Positions 7,151 to 64,000 of a stretch of 64,000 nt of DNA are shown in pieces. Numbering within the stretch: position 1 is the first letter of the stretch; each line of letters opens with the position of its first letter. Location of the stretch: assembly GCA_964533295.1 (NCBI GenBank), contig CAZHLM010000001.1, positions 112,498-176,497 on the forward strand, written 5' to 3'. The position numbers were made by a program, and so were the translations under genes. This DNA comes from an uncultured Verrucomicrobiota bacterium (GTDB lineage: Bacteria > Verrucomicrobiota > Verrucomicrobiia > Palsa-1439). Under the pieces are notes generated by a model. It had not been told where the DNA came from. It did not search any database and saw only the letters and a program-made list of their open reading frames with translations.

Positions 7151-9793
7151 ATGGCTGCACAAATCAAATCTCTCAGCCTGCCTGTTCAGGGCATGTCATG
7201 CGCTTCGTGCGTTTCACATGTGGAGGGCGCGCTCAAGGAACTGCCCGGCGTTGAAAGCGTGGTCGTCAACCTGGGCACCAACAAGGCTGCGCTCAATTTT
7301 GATCCGACCCGGGTCACCCTGACCGACCTGGCCCGCGCGGTCGACGAGGTGGGATATCGGGTGCCGACCTCTGAACTGGCGCTAGACGTGCGCGGCATGA
7401 CCTGCGCCTCGTGCGTGGCCCATGTCGAAGGGGCGCTGAAGGGGGTCGAAGGGGTCACCGGGGCAGTCGTGAACCTGGGTCTGGGCACGGCCCGCGTCAC
7501 CTACATCCCCGGCCTGGTCTCGATCAACGCCATGAAGCGGGCCGTGCGCGAGGTCGGCTACGAAGCCCAGGAGCGAAGCGAAGGCGTCGACGCGCTCGAC
7601 CGCGAGCGGCAGGCGCGCGAGGCCGAGATCCGGCGCCAGGGCCGCAACCTGCTCATCGCCGGGCTGGTTGGCCTGGTCGTCATGATCGGCACTTTCTACG
7701 ACATGCTTGGCCCCCTTAAGGTGTTGGTGCCGGCGTGGCTGGCCCAGAAGTGGGTCATCGGCCTGCTGACCACGCCCATCGTCTTCGGCCCCGGTCTGCA
7801 GTTCTTCGTCAACTCTTGGCGAGGGCTTAGGCACGGCGTGACCGACATGAACCTGCTGTACGCCACCGGCATTGGCGCCGCCTACGGCATCGCCGTCATC
7901 AACACCCTCTTCCCGGAGGCCGGCTTCGGGGGTGAGGGGGCCACCTTCTTCGAGAGCGCCGCCCTGCTGACGGCCTTCATCATCCTCGGCCGCTGGCTGG
8001 AGGCCCTCACCCGCGGGCGCACGTCCGAGGCCATCCGCAAGCTCATGAAGCTTCAGCCCAAGATCGCGCGCGTCGTCCGGGATGGAAAAGAACTGGAGAT
8101 CCCGGCGGAGGAGGTCGAGATCCACGACTTGATCCTGGTCCGCCCGGGCGAAGGCATCCCCGTGGACGGCCAGGTCGTCGACGGCTATTCCGCCGTCGAT
8201 GAGTCGATGCTGACCGGCGAGAGCCTGCCGGTGGAGAAGAAGGCCGGCGACCTCGTCATCGGCGGGACGCTCAATAAGACCGGCGCATTCCGCTTCTCGG
8301 CGACCCGCGTGGGCAAAGAGACGGCCCTGGCCCAGATCATCAAGCTGGTGGAGGACGCCCAGGCCAGCAAGGCGCCGATCCAGAAGCTGGCGGACTGGGT
8401 GGCCGGGCACTTCATCCTGGGCGTTCACGTGCTGGCGGTGCTGGTCTTCGTCTTCTGGTTCTTCTACGGCTTTGGGCGCTTCTTCGACCCGAATTCCAGC
8501 TTCATCCTCTCACCCTACAAGCTGGGCGAGATCGGCGTGTTCGGGTTCTCGCTCCTGCTGTCGGTGACGGTGCTGGTGATCTCCTGCCCGTGCGCCGTCG
8601 GCCTGGCCACCCCGAGCGCGATCATGGCTGGCGCCGGCAAGGCCGCCGAGCACGGCGTGCTCTTCAAGGGCGCCGAGGCCATCGAGAACGCCAGCAAGCT
8701 GCAGGTGATCGTCTTTGACAAGACCGGGACCCTCACCCAGGGCCAGCCGAGCGTGACGGATGTCGTGGTCAGTGATCAGTGGGCAGGGGTCAGTAACTCT
8801 GATCACTCTCCACTACCCACTGACCACCTGCTCCGCTACGCGGCCAGCGCCGAGAAGCACAGCGAGCATCCGCTGGGCGAGGCCATCCTCAAAGGAGCGG
8901 AGGCACGCGGCCTGACGCTGCCCACGCCCGAACAGTTCATTTCGATCCCCGGGCATGGCGTCGAGGCCCGAATTGAAGGCCGCGCCGTTCTGCTGGGCAA
9001 CCGCAAGCTGATGCGCGAGCGCGGCGTGGACTTCGGCGCGTTGCTGACGAGGGCGGAGGCACTGGAGGCCGATGGCAAGACGGCCATGTTCCTGGCCGTG
9101 GACGGCGCGCCGGCCGGCCTGATCGCCGTGGCCGACACGCTCAAGGAGTACTCGGCCGAGGCGGTTGCGCACCTGCACCGGCTGGGCATCCAGGTGGCCA
9201 TGATCACGGGTGACAACGCCCGCACCGCGCAGGCGATCGCCCGGCAGGTGGGCATCGACCGGGTGCTGGCGGAAGTCCTGCCCCAGGACAAGGCCGAAGA
9301 AGTCAAGAAGCTCCAAGCCGCCCCCGCTGGAAAGCGCGGGGCAGGCGGCCACAAGGTGGCCATGGTCGGGGATGGCGTCAACGATGCGCCGGCCCTGGCC
9401 CAGGCCGATGTCGGCCTGGCCATCGGCTCCGGGACCGACGTGGCCAAGGAAACCGGCGACGTCATCCTGATCAAGGACGACATCCGCGACGTGGTCGTGG
9501 CCCTGGAAGTGGCCCAGGCCACCATGCGCAAGGTCAAGCAGAACCTGTTCTGGGCCTTCGTCTACAACCTGCTGGGCATCCCGCTGGGGGCCGGGCTGTT
9601 CTACCCCTTCGTGTCGCTGATCATCAGCCCGGAGCTGGCCGGCCTGATGATGGCCGTCAGCTCGGTCTCGGTCACCCTGAACACGTTACTCCTCAAGCGC
9701 TTCCGGCCATCCATCCGCCGCGACGATGCGCCCTGGCCAGGCCCCCGCCAGGCACACCCAGGCCTGGCGCCGGCGCCAGCCAGCGGCGACTGA
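7151..9793 (+). CDS. copA: copper-translocating P1B-type ATPase with two N-terminal HMA domains
   Basis: two GMSCASC/GMTCASC HMA motifs, CPC TM motif ([11 protein letters not shown]), [21 protein letters not shown], MxxSS; AAGGA ribosome-binding site before the ATG at 7151. Confidence 0.9.
8765..8827. repeat. palindromic mini-element (terminal inverted repeats GTGGTCAGTG / CACTGACCAC) inserted in frame within copA1
   Basis: sequence gtggtcagtgatcagtggg ... cccactgaccac adds about 10 aa ([19 protein letters not shown]) between DKTGT and SEHP compared with the copA3 paralog. Confidence 0.6.
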
Positions 9794-14691: not shown

Positions 14692-16095
14692 ATGCGTCTC
14701 TTCGCCAAGCTCTTGCTCTCTTTCCTGGCCGTTGTCCTGGTAGGCGTGGCCGTGGTGTCGCTGCTGGCCAACCAGGCGGCGGCCAGCGAGGTGCACAGCT
14801 TCATGTTCCAGGGCGGCATGACGAGCGACGCCGGCCTGGCGCAGGAGTTGGCAGGCTACTATCGTGGTCGTGGCTCCTGGGAGGGCGTCCAGACACTGGT
14901 GAGCGCCGGTCTGGGGATGGGCGGCATGGCGGGGATGATGGGCCAGCAGCTCCTCGTCGCCGATGCGCGCGGCCAGGTCGTGGCCGACTCCGCCGGCCAG
15001 CGCGTAGGCCAGACCCTGAGCCAGGCCGAACTGTCAGGCGGCACCGCCATCGTCGTCGACGGCCAGCGCGCCGGCACGCTCGTCGCCGTGGGCGGCATGG
15101 GGATGGGCGAGATCAGGGGTGGCCCGGGGCAGGCTGACAGCGCCACGAACGATCTGTTAGGGCGCGTCAACCGGGCCATCTGGCTGGCGGCACTGGCGGC
15201 GGGCGGCGCTGCTCTCGTGGTCGGCGGCATTTTGGCCTATGGCCTCGTTCGACCGATCCGGCGCCTCATGGCTGCGACGGCCGTCATCGCCCGCGGCGAC
15301 CTGGCCCAGCGTGTCCCGGTCACGTCTCAAGATGAAATCGGCGACCTGGCGGCCGCGTTCAACGCGATGGCGGCCGACCTGCAGAAGGCTGAGCGCCTGC
15401 GGCAGGACATGATCGCGGATATTGCCCATGAGCTGCGCAACCCCCTGGCGGCCCTGCAAGGCAGCCTGGAAGCGGTGGTCGACGGGGTGCTGCCGCCCAC
15501 CCAAGAGACCCTGGCGCCGCTGCTCGATCAGACGCAATTGCTCGCGCGGCTGGTGAGCGACCTGCGCACGCTGGCCCTTGCCGACGCCGGGCAACTGCCT
15601 CTGGATCGCCTCTCCATGAACCCCGCGGATCTGGTCCGGTCGGTGGTCGCCCAATTCACGCCCCAGGCTCAAGCCAAGCACCTCACCCTGCGCGCCGATA
15701 TTCCTGTCAGCCTGCCGACCCTCTCGCTCGATCCCCAACGCATCGCCCAGGTCCTCGGCAACCTGCTCGGCAATGCCATTCGTCACACGCCCGCAGGGGG
15801 AGTGATCAGTGTTCAGGGTTCAGTATCCAGTGAGCGCCCGGAAATCACTCTGAACACTGGGCACTATTTACGGATCACTGTTACTGACACCGGCTCCGGT
15901 ATCCCGCCTGAGGCTGTGCCGCATGTCTTCGACCGCTTCTATCGCGTCGACCGCGGGCGCTCGCGCAGCGAAGGCGGGACCGGCCTCGGCCTGGCCATCG
16001 CCAAACAACTGGTGCAGGCGCACGGCGGGCACATCTGGGTGACCAGCCAGCCCGGCCAGGGCACGCAAGTTTCGTTTACCCTGCCTCTCAACTGA
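14692..16095 (+). CDS. sensor histidine kinase (periplasmic Met/Gly-rich sensor, HAMP, HisKA, HATPase)
   Basis: IADIAHELRNPLAAL H-box, DTGSGIP and GGTGLGLAI G-boxes; sensor loop with GMGGMAGMMGQQ. Confidence 0.85.
   Translation: MRLFAKLLLSFLAVVLVGVAVVSLLANQAAASEVHSFMFQGGMTSDAGLAQELAGYYRGRGSWEGVQTLVSAGLGMGGMAGMMGQQLLVADARGQVVADSAGQRVGQTLSQAELSGGTAIVVDGQRAGTLVAVGGMGMGEIRGGPGQADSATNDLLGRVNRAIWLAALAAGGAALVVGGILAYGLVRPIRRLMAATAVIARGDLAQRVPVTSQDEIGDLAAAFNAMAADLQKAERLRQDMIADIAHELRNPLAALQGSLEAVVDGVLPPTQETLAPLLDQTQLLARLVSDLRTLALADAGQLPLDRLSMNPADLVRSVVAQFTPQAQAKHLTLRADIPVSLPTLSLDPQRIAQVLGNLLGNAIRHTPAGGVISVQGSVSSERPEITLNTGHYLRITVTDTGSGIPPEAVPHVFDRFYRVDRGRSRSEGGTGLGLAIAKQLVQAHGGHIWVTSQPGQGTQVSFTLPLN
15802..15890. 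repeat. palindromic mini-element of the CAGTGA/TCACTG family inserted in frame within the kinase ATP-binding domain
   Basis: gtgatcagtgttcagggttcag ... actctgaacactg ... cactgttactgacac; stem cagtgttcagggt pairs with actctgaacactg; encodes ISVQGSVSSERPEITLNTGHYLRITVTD. Confidence 0.55.
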
Positions 16096-16243: not shown

Positions 16244-18925
<2,682 letters not shown>

Positions 18926-18975
18926 TCATGGGTAATTGGTGATTGGTGATGGTTGATTGAAGACCGCAATCAACC
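18926..18975. repeat. tandem heptamer (TGATTGG) tract plus hairpin GGTTGATTG-aagaccg-CAATCAACC immediately after the copA2 stop
   Basis: read directly; a related ATCAGCC/ATCAACC tract at 14650-14691 precedes the kinase start. Confidence 0.4.
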
Positions 18976-18995
18976 ATCAGCCATGGAGAGATGCT

Positions 18996-62017: not shown

Positions 62018-62018
62018 A

Positions 62019-62108
62019 GTGGTCAGTGGACAGCGAGCAGTGATCAGTGCGCAGTGATCAGTGGGTAGTCTCGAAGGGATGCTTCGCAGTGAGCAGAGTT
62101 TGATCACT
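62019..62108. repeat. 90-bp palindromic element (terminal inverted repeats GTGGTCAGTG / CACTGACCAC) at the ABC ATPase/permease junction
   Basis: arms cagtgatcagtgggtagtc and gactacccactgaccactg are reverse complements; encodes the last 17 aa of the ATPase and abuts the permease start. Confidence 0.6.
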
Positions 62109-64000
62109 GTCGACTACCCACTGACCACTGTTCCGGCTTTCTTCCATTTCGATGAAGACCACAAACAAGTCTTCGAGCGAGAACGGGATGGGCGCGACGC
62201 GGTGCGCGGCATGGCCCTCGGCGGCAAAGGCGGCTTGAATTTCGGGCACCAGGCGGGCCGCATCCTCGACGAGGACGTGAACCCGGTCGCCAAACAGCCC
62301 GGCGCTGAGCACACCGTCCATCTTCTGCATGGCCCGTAGGGCGCGGACGGGTTCAGGGCAGGCCACTTCGAGCATTTCACCCGCGCGCATATTCTCGCGC
62401 AGGCTCGCCGGGCTGCCGGTGGCGATCAGGCGCCCGGAGTAGATCAGCCCGAGCGTCCCGCAGTGCTCGGCCTCGTCCATGTAATGCGTCGTCACGAACA
62501 CCGTTACCCCACGCCCGGCCAGTTCGTAAATCAGGTCCCAGAAGGCGCGGCGCGAGAGCGGGTCAACGCCTGAAGTCGGCTCGTCCAGGAATAAGATACG
62601 TGGCTCATGCAGGATGGCGCAGCCCAGGGCCAGGCGCTGCTTCCACCCGCCGGAGAGGGCGCGCGTCATGGCCCGTTCGCGGCCCACCAGCCCGGCCATC
62701 TCCAGCGCCCAGCGTTTGCGTGAGGCCAGCCGGCTGCCGGGCACGCCGTACACACCGCCGTAAAAGTCCAGGTTCTCTTCGACCGTCAGGTCGTTGTAGA
62801 GCGAGAACTTCTGTGACATGTAGCCGATGTCGGGCTTGATCTGTGTCTGCTCGCGCACGATATCGCGCCCGGCCACCGTGCCGCTTCCGGCGGTGGGCGG
62901 CAGCAGGCCGCACAACATACGGAGGGTCGTCGTCTTGCCGCTGCCGTTCGGGCCGAGGAAGCCGTAGACCTCACCTGCGCGCACGTCCAGGGAGAGGCGA
63001 TCCACTGCCGTGAAGTCGCCGAATTTTCTGGTGAGGCTGGAGAGGCGTATGGCGTAATCCGCATCACGCGTCACAGGTTTCGCCTGCTTATTATTCGCCG
63101 CGAGTGCAATGCCACCCGCAGTGGGGGCCGCCCGGCGGCCATCCGCCGCGCGCGACTCCAGTGTCGCCACGAACACGTCTTCGAGGCTGGGCGTTGCGCG
63201 GCGCACATCGGAGAGGCGGATACCAGCGGCGCTCATCTCAGTTTGCAGCACGGGCAGAGCGCCCTCCGGCTGTTCCATCAGCAAATGCACACGCTCGCCA
63301 AAGACCTGCACGTGCGAGACATTTGGGAGAGCGCGGAGCCGGCTCACGGCTGCACGCTGCGGCAGGGCCAGCAGGTCGAACATATCGCCCTTCAAACTCG
63401 CCCTGAGGGCCGCGGGTGTGTCGCAGGCGACGATCTCGCCCTGGTGCATCAGCGCCACCCGATGGAAGCGTTCAGCCTCGTCCATGTACGGCGTCGTCAC
63501 CAAAATGGTGATCCCTTGCGCCAGGAAGTCGTTGAGCAGCAGCCAGAAGTCGCGGCGGCTGACCGGGTCCACGCCGGTGGTCGGCTCGTCAAGGAACAAG
63601 ACCTGCGGTGAATAGACGAGCGCGCAGGCCAGGGCCAGTTTCTTCTTCATGCCGCCGGAGAGGTGCTCGGCCCGGCGGTCGGCGATGCGTTCAAGCCGGG
63701 CGAAGCGGAGCAGATCGGTGATACGGCGTTCGCGCTCTTCGGGTGGTAGGTGGTAGAGGTCGGCAAAGAAGTCCAGGTTTTCACGGATGCTGAGCGAGCC
63801 GTACAGCGTGAAGCCTTCGGACATGTAGCCGATCTTCCCGCCCAGGGCCGACGGGCTGGCGGCCACGTCCACCCCGGCCACGGTCGCTCGCCCGGCGCTG
63901 GGGCGCAGCAGGCCGCACAGCATTTGCAGCGTCGTGGTCTTGCCGGCGCCGTCCGGCCCAACCAGGCCGAAGATTTCGCCCCGGCGCACGTCCAGGTCGA
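62058..64000 (-). CDS. fused tandem-ABC ATP-binding protein (YbhF-like), 5' end beyond window
   Basis: two Walker A (GPDGAGKTT, GPNGSGKTT), two LSGG signatures and two Walker B; ORF still open at position 64000. Confidence 0.85.
   Translation of the reverse strand, partial: DLDVRRGEIFGLVGPDGAGKTTTLQMLCGLLRPSAGRATVAGVDVAASPSALGGKIGYMSEGFTLYGSLSIRENLDFFADLYHLPPEERERRITDLLRFARLERIADRRAEHLSGGMKKKLALACALVYSPQVLFLDEPTTGVDPVSRRDFWLLLNDFLAQGITILVTTPYMDEAERFHRVALMHQGEIVACDTPAALRASLKGDMFDLLALPQRAAVSRLRALPNVSHVQVFGERVHLLMEQPEGALPVLQTEMSAAGIRLSDVRRATPSLEDVFVATLESRAADGRRAAPTAGGIALAANNKQAKPVTRDADYAIRLSSLTRKFGDFTAVDRLSLDVRAGEVYGFLGPNGSGKTTTLRMLCGLLPPTAGSGTVAGRDIVREQTQIKPDIGYMSQKFSLYNDLTVEENLDFYGGVYGVPGSRLASRKRWALEMAGLVGRERAMTRALSGGWKQRLALGCAILHEPRILFLDEPTSGVDPLSRRAFWDLIYELAGRGVTVFVTTHYMDEAEHCGTLGLIYSGRLIATGSPASLRENMRAGEMLEVACPEPVRALRAMQKMDGVLSAGLFGDRVHVLVEDAARLVPEIQAAFAAEGHAAHRVAPIPFSLEDLFVVFIEMEESRNSGQWVVDSDQTLLTAKHPFETTH

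Follow-up and report, generated by a model that had tools for sequence, protein, structure and literature searches.

A hairpin built of seven-nucleotide units at the junction of an ABC ATPase and a permease gene is probably a copy of a dispersed palindromic repeat

The window analysed here is a 64,000-nucleotide stretch of DNA from an uncultured Verrucomicrobiota bacterium, whose minus strand carries the genes of a tandem-ABC ATPase and of the first ABC-2 permease (permease 1). The junction between both genes is occupied by a palindromic element, which an earlier note had placed at positions 62019-62108 and interpreted either as an RNA hairpin for translational coupling or as a mobile element that has donated a C-terminal tail to the ATPase. 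We have set the borders of the element by aligning the region to relatives where the site is empty (L129, L130 and L156), and have examined it by an inverted-repeat search and RNA folding. The palindrome as such is present and far from chance (z-score of the fold, -4.5), but it extends from 62018 to 62133, and the previous end at 62108 falls within the very sequence that had been quoted for it; that description also lacked the 7-nt units, the polarity of the arms, the relation to the heptamer repeats known as STRR and TAACTGA repeats, and the true extent of the element. The junction contains the following features:

62018-62133, minus strand: the complete hairpin of heptamer arrays, 116 nt, which separates the tandem-ABC ATPase from permease 1
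62101-62133, minus strand: 5' arm (in mRNA sense), with the reverse-type units CAGTGGT CAGTGGG TAGTCGA CAGTGAT CA, translated as NSGQWVVDSDQ, which is part of the ATPase tail
62071-62100, minus strand: central loop region with the nested hairpin CGAAG-CATCC-CTTCG (62072-62086), translated as TLLTAKHPFE
62018-62070, minus strand: 3' arm (in mRNA sense), with the forward-type units ACTACCC ACTGATC ACTGCGC ACTGATC ACTGCTC GCTGTCC ACTGACC ACT, containing the ATPase stop
62129-62061, minus strand: C-terminal tail of the ATPase encoded by the element, SGQWVVDSDQTLLTAKHPFETTH, 23 codons (about 23 residues), where orthologues end with ...EESR(R)N(S/I)H... and carry no tail
62060-62058, minus strand: stop codon TGA of the ATPase, provided by the forward unit CCACTGA of the 3' arm
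62017-62015, minus strand: start codon ATG of permease 1, whose U and G take part in the lowest base pairs of the stem in the minimum-energy fold

The arms of the element are arrays of a degenerate 7-nt unit and not unique sequence. In mRNA sense its layout follows the scheme 5'-(nnYCAGT)n, a loop that encloses another, small hairpin, and (ACTGRnn)n-3', which reads the same on either strand. The spacing of seven nucleotides is exact in both arms, with four CAGT units at 62038-62062 and two ACTG units at 62120-62130 accompanied by degenerate units, and in a shifted unit phase the 3' arm reads ...CCCACTGA TCACTGC GCACTGA TCACTGC ... CCACTGA CCACT. The near-complementarity of the arms described previously was recovered in the inverted-repeat search, whose best pair (62052-62070 and 62112-62130) covers 19 nt with 95% complementarity, while longer pairs of 29-31 nt extend to 62018 and 62131. 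The sense RNA folds with a predicted energy of -49.8 kcal/mol (none of 200 shuffled sequences was as stable), and the element is found in identical form in six independent assemblies, which excludes an assembly artefact. The termini are CAGTG...CCACT, with GTAG found solely in the interior as part of the unit variant GGGTAGT. Searches of Rfam gave no match in the whole window at gathering thresholds and chance-level matches at E-value thresholds between 61900 and 62250 (E about 0.5-10). Between 61700 and 62400 we found no promoter-like sites and, on both strands, no terminator-like sites, and the stem, which is directly followed by AUGUUUACC, does not combine a GC-rich stem with a U tract as in a rho-independent terminator.

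The 40-nt spacer between both genes (62018-62057) consists of 3'-arm sequence throughout, and the element ends 1 nt from the permease ATG. The ATPase frame crosses the 5' arm and the loop until it meets its first TGA, which belongs to the 3' arm, while the other two frames close earlier. We have rejected the more general notion of a 5' arm that is open in all frames and a 3' arm that closes all of them for this copy, as the two other frames of its 5' arm contain TAG and TGA. That the element supplies the C-terminus of the ATPase had been proposed before and was borne out, but the tail extends over about 23 residues instead of 17 and is not encoded by the right arm alone: on the plus strand its coding DNA comprises the right arm and the loop, together with 13 nt at the beginning of the left arm. 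On the downstream side, the permease contains 378 residues in public gene calls, which start at the ATG, and the exact protein is found in several assemblies; its MF(T/S)R N-terminus is conserved in relatives, which confirms this start. A 30-residue N-terminal extension from a GTG at 62107 is thus spurious, as had been assumed. There is no Shine-Dalgarno (SD) sequence before the permease ATG in the spacer, and about half of the neighbouring genes have one. The ATPase contains 674 residues in public gene calls (L001 7936-9960) and its true start lies beyond the end of the window; a listed 643-residue open reading frame (ORF) starting from a GTG at 63989 is truncated (window 63989-64000).

A comparison to orthologous junctions reveals both empty and filled sites. 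The ATPase orthologues P0001, P0006-8 and P0060 do not carry the tail, so that the sharing of the tail by orthologues devoid of the palindrome, which would have spoken against its origin from the element, was not observed. The closest ATPase homologues without the element end with ...FIEMEESRRNSHPGGAA (81% identity), ...EESRINNHVQ, ...EESRRNIHVQ and ...EERRSNGHVQ. At the level of DNA, the element is absent in L129, L130, L137/L162, L151 and L156 (72-77% identity), where the ATPase has the C-terminus ...EESRxNxHVQ and its gene shares an overlap of 11 nt with the permease ATG; in L129 an AGGAGG sequence is located 7 nt upstream of this ATG, and the overlap in L159/L165 is 4 nt. Between filled (window, L007) and empty (L129, L130, L156) sites a few nucleotides of the ancestral spacer were replaced. 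An intermediate arrangement is found in L145/L148 (84% identity; L145 1566-1598), where the 33-nt spacer GGCAGTTGGAAGGAAACTGAACGCC has a single reverse and a single forward unit and supplies the ATPase stop with its ACTGA, with a fold that is not significant (z 0.15); this state may represent a proto-element or a remnant. In the close relatives L007/L153 (94.5% identity), the same junction harbours a different heptamer hairpin of 72 nt (z -6.1), which encodes the tail SEQLSVIGDQSPATDH*, and while the flanking regions are nearly identical to the window the elements themselves cannot be aligned. Since relatives without the element lack the tail, and L007/L153 carry a different hairpin together with a different tail, the comparison identifies SGQWVVDSDQTLLTAKHPFETTH as a derivative of the element. 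Of the two interpretations offered previously, the element that donated a tail is the better one. A model of the kind known from T4 gene 38, where a hairpin brings an upstream SD sequence close to the AUG, was rejected, as the ancestral AGGAGG is lost in the window (AGCCGGAAC) and in L007.

Other rearrangements have repeatedly affected the junction of ATPase and permease in this group. In L139 (3555-3632; 73.6% identity) it contains another hairpin with TCCCYNC units (z -2.8), whose core GGGATGCTTCGC and the loop core GCGAAGCATCCC of the window (12 nt) are exact reverse complements, perhaps through inversion of the loop; a second occurrence of this 12-nt core, in L081, is ordinary coding sequence. 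In L008 (1555-2145; 80% identity) a methyltransferase gene of the PEMT/ICMT family is located between both genes. In L007 (1675-3666) the tandem ATPase is called as two ORFs of 377 and 280 residues, which may reflect a frameshift or an assembly error at low coverage (about 2.4).

Within the window, tandem runs of 7-nt units with a CAGT or ACTG core are confined to the ABC junction and to three protein-coding genes, copA1, copA2 and a histidine kinase, with six such runs in total compared to 1.3 ± 1.2 in shuffled sequences. The copies in the three genes are:

8765-8827, plus strand: in-frame copy in copA1, 21 codons, z -4.9, sharing CTACCCACTGA with the copy at the ABC junction
17993-18058, plus strand: in-frame copy in copA2, 22 codons, z -2.5, at the homologous site after DKTGT...TDVV
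15800-15897, plus strand: in-frame copy in the histidine kinase that has partly decayed, located between N box and G1 box, with 19-nt arms of 84% complementarity, z -1.8

The hairpins in copA1 and copA2 reside at the same position following DKTGT...TDVV and account for 11-12 additional residues compared to CopA proteins of known structure in the PDB. The distance between DKTGT and SEHP is 48 residues in CopA of the window compared to a modal value of 36-37 residues (63 of 117; 120 homologues compared), and it ranges from 39 to 68 residues in Chloroflexota-like relatives with recognizable or decayed inserts. Two loci from metagenome-assembled genomes (MAGs) of Anaerolineae that were found by their DNA pattern only, L117 and L120, are copA genes carrying a hairpin at this very site; L117 is 78.5% identical over copA1. 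Judged by the names of the closest homologues and loci, which are those of Chloroflexota or Anaerolineae, the source genome would resemble Chloroflexota (Anaerolineae). CopA proteins of other Chloroflexota (P0129-P0139, P0198, P0218, L117 and L120) contain hairpins or their decayed remains at the equivalent position, amounting to 2 to 31 extra residues. In the kinase, where the distance between N box and G1 box is 42 residues compared to a modal value of 32 (62 of 118), the 3' arm merges into the native ITVTD codons ATCACTGTTACTGAC, and the same site of a homologue with 55% identity (P0252) contains a segment of 57 residues with the clearly heptamer-derived peptide CSVNSDQLTVNSKQWSVSSEQ...LITDHWLLITVTD. 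The earlier assignment of the copies in copA1, copA2 and the kinase to the same kind of element therefore has held, and comparison to homologues defines them as true in-frame insertions. The copies of the window vary greatly in size, from 63 nt in copA1 and 66 nt in copA2 to about 98 nt in the kinase and 116 nt at the junction. The 11-nt motif CTACCCACTGA, which is common to the copies at the ABC junction and in copA1 and absent from every other locus fetched, points to copying within the source genome.

Two further observations concern the surroundings of these copies. On the 3' side of the copA2 stop (18925), the window contains a second hairpin with 7-nt periodicity (18942-18984), which is built of TTGGTGA / TCACCAA units and has 18-nt arms of 89% complementarity (z -3.3). 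Moreover, native codons resembling the unit adjoin several copies, as in ITVTD of the kinase, encoded by ATCACTGTTACTGAC (15874-15888), and in MFS at the start of the permease, encoded by ATGTTCAGT in relatives with an empty site (L129 986-1000); the VTD of CopA (8750-8765) is encoded by GTG ACG GAT, where GTC ACT GAY would match the unit. Such codon strings may act as seeds or as preferred targets.

For the distribution of similar hairpins, we scanned a collection of 596 Gb, containing one genome per species, for the pattern AGTGATCAGTG-N26-56-ACTGAYCAC. The scan identified at least 120 loci compared to a chance expectation of about 67 for the whole collection (our own estimate), and by eye about 118 of the 120 matches listed carry further heptamer units beyond the pattern used in the search. 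The matches listed are from Acidobacteriota (most), Chloroflexota, Verrucomicrobiota, Planctomycetota, Bacteroidota, Desulfobacterota, Gemmatimonadota, Nitrospirota and others. The polarity of the arms is strict, at a ratio of about 100:1: in IMG/VR the pattern is found in 42 stretches compared to one with swapped arms, and among array pairs identified without a seed the reverse-then-forward order prevails with 101 cases over a single case of the opposite order. Certain contigs contain a hairpin in nearly every spacer, as for example nine in 10.7 kb. In the contigs L194, L170 and L169 of IMG/VR (classed as viral, GC content 62%), nearly every spacer carries a reverse-then-forward hairpin with the consensus TTTGCCTTTACTGATCACTGGCCACTGATCACTGATCACT. 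A consensus of about 40 nt is common to the copies in L194, which typically contain four to five units per arm. At least in such dense contigs, the hairpins constitute a true dispersed repeat family. Commonly, the element is found between the end of an upstream and the start of a downstream gene. It fits tightly into the spacer, where the median gap measures 1 nt to the upstream stop (overlapping it in 41 of 87 cases) and about 20 nt to the downstream start. We counted 83 co-directional, 20 convergent, 15 divergent and 11 intragenic contexts, which seems roughly comparable to how bacterial spacers are commonly composed, and no preference for gene starts over gene ends (86 compared to 87 sides). 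A full-text search of the accessible literature for the repeat sequences found here retrieved no paper.

Related repeats have been described in other organisms. The STRR (short tandemly repeated repetitive) sequences of cyanobacteria consist of 7-bp units in tandem and can fold into hairpins between the co-transcribed genes hupS and hupL, for which roles in transcript stability or translational coupling were proposed (PMC2670836), and in Nostoc PCC 7120 the spacer between hupS and asr0689 contains ttgtcagttgtcagttgtca followed by ccactgactactgac (PMC2408588). The Nostoc sequences ttgtcagttgtcag and ccactgactactgac (PMC2408588) match the units TGTCAGT and CCACTGA of the window and L007, with the same units in the same order. 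The element thus shares with STRRs, which are dispersed in many copies, the tandem 7-nt units with a CAGT/ACTG core, the formation of hairpins and the location between co-transcribed genes. It differs in that its host is not a cyanobacterium and in that it enters coding sequence, where it provides a stop codon and a tail of 23 residues, and has in-frame copies in conserved enzymes. Neither the strict order of reverse before forward units nor an occurrence in many phyla was found in the papers that were consulted.

A second group, the TAACTGA repeats of marine Beggiatoaceae, cyanobacteria and some Bacteroidetes, ends few nucleotides (most often a single one) before start codons and replaces the SD sequence (MacGregor 2015; PMC4679880). 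Owing to the TGA within the unit, its arrays extend over the stop codon of the ORF upstream, they give rise to peptides of the LITDN/LSVISYQ type when translated, and they are almost all direct repeats, with one inverted repeat reported (PMC4679880). Similarly, the forward unit of the window conforms to nnACTGA, the array ends 1 nt before the ATG of a gene that lacks an SD sequence, the TGA of the ATPase is located inside the array, and there are equivalents of the described peptides in ...TTH*, PATDH*, SLTTDN and VISDQ. In contrast to direct repeats of exact TAACTGA, the units of the window have a higher GC content (TCACTGA, CCACTGA, GCACTGA) and are part of an inverted-repeat arm, with each forward array pairing with a reverse array upstream into a long hairpin, and the host phyla differ. 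TAACTGA is found as one variant unit inside the hairpin arms of a Chloroflexota MAG (L024). Judged by its units, the junction element appears to belong with the heptamer repeats of the STRR and TAACTGA type.

Resemblance also extends to the repetitive extragenic palindromes (REPs) of proteobacteria, which can donate stop codons to flanking ORFs and reside inside ORFs (PMC3733652) and whose hairpins affect translation when located near a stop codon (PMC12306157). Like REP, BIME and REPIN sequences, the hairpins described here are abundant short palindromes that fill co-directional and convergent spacers and are transcribed with operons, but the element of the window is devoid of a terminal GTAG or CGTC tag and its arms are tandem 7-nt arrays instead of a unique palindrome of 20-40 nt. 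To our knowledge, no association of heptamer hairpins with RAYT proteins has been described. In Rickettsia, and as far as is known exclusively there, palindromic elements (RPEs) of 100-150 bp and unique sequence have inserted in frame at permissive sites of functional protein genes. The occurrence of a palindromic repeat in frame in protein genes, where it adds a peptide segment, is common to both, whereas RPEs lack a heptamer periodicity and are not related in sequence to the element of the window.

Taken together, we consider it probable that the feature at the junction is one copy of a dispersed, REP-like DNA palindrome with arms of 7-nt units, which has donated the tail of the ATPase and for which coupling is a by-product. 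As the comparison to relatives shows, the ancestral junction had an 11-nt overlap between ATPase stop and permease start and an AGGAGG SD sequence inside the ATPase gene. A heptamer hairpin then arose or inserted just upstream of the permease ATG in the lineage of the window and its 94.5% identical relative, whereby the ATPase lost about four codons at its end (ancestral ...HVQ) and since reads through the 5' arm and the loop to terminate at the TGA of the 3' arm, adding about 23 residues encoded by the element, and the permease lost its SD sequence, with its start now located 1 nt after the stem. On the polycistronic mRNA, the stem of about -50 kcal/mol would bury the initiation region of the permease and prevent de novo binding of the 30S subunit, but ribosomes finishing the ATPase would unzip it and terminate 40 nt upstream of the AUG, and permease translation would therefore stay dependent on translation of the ATPase. 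Such ribosome-dependent coupling would explain why the insertion was tolerated and would not require selection as a regulator, while the element itself would spread or expand as DNA with a fixed polarity of its arms. A hairpin for translational coupling, as formerly suggested, is hence mechanically plausible with respect to the AUG in the stem, the absence of an SD sequence and the stop in the 3' arm, but the stability of the RNA does not follow: the antisense hairpin is more stable by a mean of 2.0 kcal/mol in 83 co-directional junctions (p 0.035), and by 8.6 kcal/mol at the junction of the window (-57.9 compared to -49.3 kcal/mol in sense). Selection at the level of RNA, which could have been inferred from an asymmetry in G.U pairs, is thus unsupported, and as no sign of it was found, we have ranked a tolerated palindrome with coupling as by-product above a selected regulatory hairpin.

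Several observations weigh against a dispersed palindrome. We have found no target-site duplication in the comparison of filled (window, L007) and empty (L129, L130, L156) sites, and neither a mobilising enzyme nor a donor copy was identified, although no search for a transposase was made, so that the terms dispersed and mobile rest on the shared consensus and on presence and absence at orthologous sites. The part of the source genome examined contains four copies in 64 kb. The hairpins with 7-nt periodicity but unrelated units (window 18942-18984; L139) hint at a generic process of slippage or template switching instead of a sequence-specific element, and the strong hairpins of different sequence at an identical position of the window and of L007 could equally indicate selection for structure.

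The latter is central to the view of the hairpin as an adaptive RNA element, selected for translational coupling, for the ratio of ATPase to permease or because it stabilises the cistron upstream; similar proposals exist for the STRR hairpins of the hupS-hupL spacer (PMC2670836) and for REPs near stop codons (PMC12306157). It would account for the burial of the AUG and its initiation region in a stem of -50 kcal/mol with a stop in the 3' arm 40 nt upstream and no SD sequence, for the strong hairpin (z -6.1) that the 94.5% identical relative retains at this site with another sequence and for the recognizable arm-derived peptides that are retained in copA orthologues at 74-86% identity. We nevertheless find this explanation doubtful, since the sense strand is not the more stable one, either in the 83 co-directional cases or at the locus itself, an 11-nt overlap suffices in relatives, the proportions of convergent, divergent and co-directional sites look like the usual mix of spacers, and the copies in coding loops of CopA and the kinase have no obvious regulatory logic. 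An origin by chance or as assembly artefact, for which nothing but the low-complexity appearance of the sequence could be invoked, is refuted by the significance of the fold, the identity of the element in six independent assemblies and the number of loci in the pattern scan, which exceeds our estimate for chance.

Two other explanations place the origin of the element into a different process, and both appear less probable still than an adaptive hairpin. In one of them, the element would be a classical MITE (miniature transposable element with inverted repeats), a non-autonomous sequence whose terminal inverted repeats contain several transposase-binding heptamers and which is moved in trans by an encoded transposase. 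The strict outward/inward polarity of the arms, the long consensus shared by copies of the same contig, with typically four to five units per arm, and the presence or absence at orthologous junctions would all be expected for such an element. This is opposed by the missing target-site duplication, by the large differences in length and sequence among the copies of the window, by the intermediate state of L145 with its single reverse and forward unit and by the occurrence of the same heptamer in many phyla, which would be unusual for a single insertion sequence (IS) family; also, no transposase turned up, and none was searched for. Alternatively, the hairpin might be of purely local origin, by slippage from unit-like native codons and formation of the palindrome by intrastrand template switching, with no copying between loci. 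This similarly improbable route draws on the unit-like codons that adjoin coding copies (ITVTD of the kinase, MF(S/T) at the permease start encoded by GTTCA(G/C)T, and VTD of CopA if encoded by GTC ACT GAY), on the state of L145, on the variable number of units between relatives and on the unrelated units of other hairpins with the same periodicity. It is at odds with the 11-nt genome-specific motif common to the copies at the ABC junction and in copA1, with the consensus of about 40 nt among the copies of L194 and with a polarity of 100:1, which symmetric slippage does not predict; moreover, the identity of the element in six assemblies shows that it is not hypervariable over short timescales.

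We thus return to the dispersed palindrome. The junction element is a partly coding addition, from a phylum new to them, to the known STRR/TAACTGA kind of heptamer repeats, and it behaves like REP-type palindromes. In a broader and much more speculative reading, which we deem unlikely at this stage, the reverse-then-forward heptamer hairpins would form a single class extending over many phyla that subsumes STRR and TAACTGA repeats, whose polarity and whose core, conserved in Acidobacteriota, Chloroflexota, Planctomycetota, Verrucomicrobiota, Bacteroidota and cyanobacteria, would originate from one conserved sequence-specific machinery, and whose members would serve as self-terminating junction modules opened by ribosomes that can be domesticated as protein loops. 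This machinery could be an unrecognised mobilising enzyme or an interaction with a universal component such as the 3' tail of 16S rRNA, where a segment beside the anti-SD sequence is presumably identical to GAUCAC of the forward unit and complementary to GUGAUC of the reverse unit.

For annotation, the element accounts for the non-homologous C-terminal tail of the ATPase and the spurious 30-residue extension of the permease, and for inserts of the VISDQ...LTTDH type in CopA and histidine kinases, which are recurrent in Chloroflexota and can be mistaken for functional motifs. Heptamer-repeat hairpins, so far known from cyanobacteria and a small number of sulfur bacteria, have a wide distribution in Acidobacteriota, Chloroflexota and PVC (Planctomycetes-Verrucomicrobia-Chlamydiae) phyla as well. 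Their polarity is fixed, and they can remodel the junctions of genes, so that a hairpin separates a pair that used to overlap, and add coding sequence. What most deserves to be followed is their spread over many phyla, the strictness of their polarity and the repeated occurrence of in-frame inserts in CopA and in kinases, and the locus described here offers a concrete and testable case of a palindromic repeat that is tolerated inside an operon and inside enzymes.

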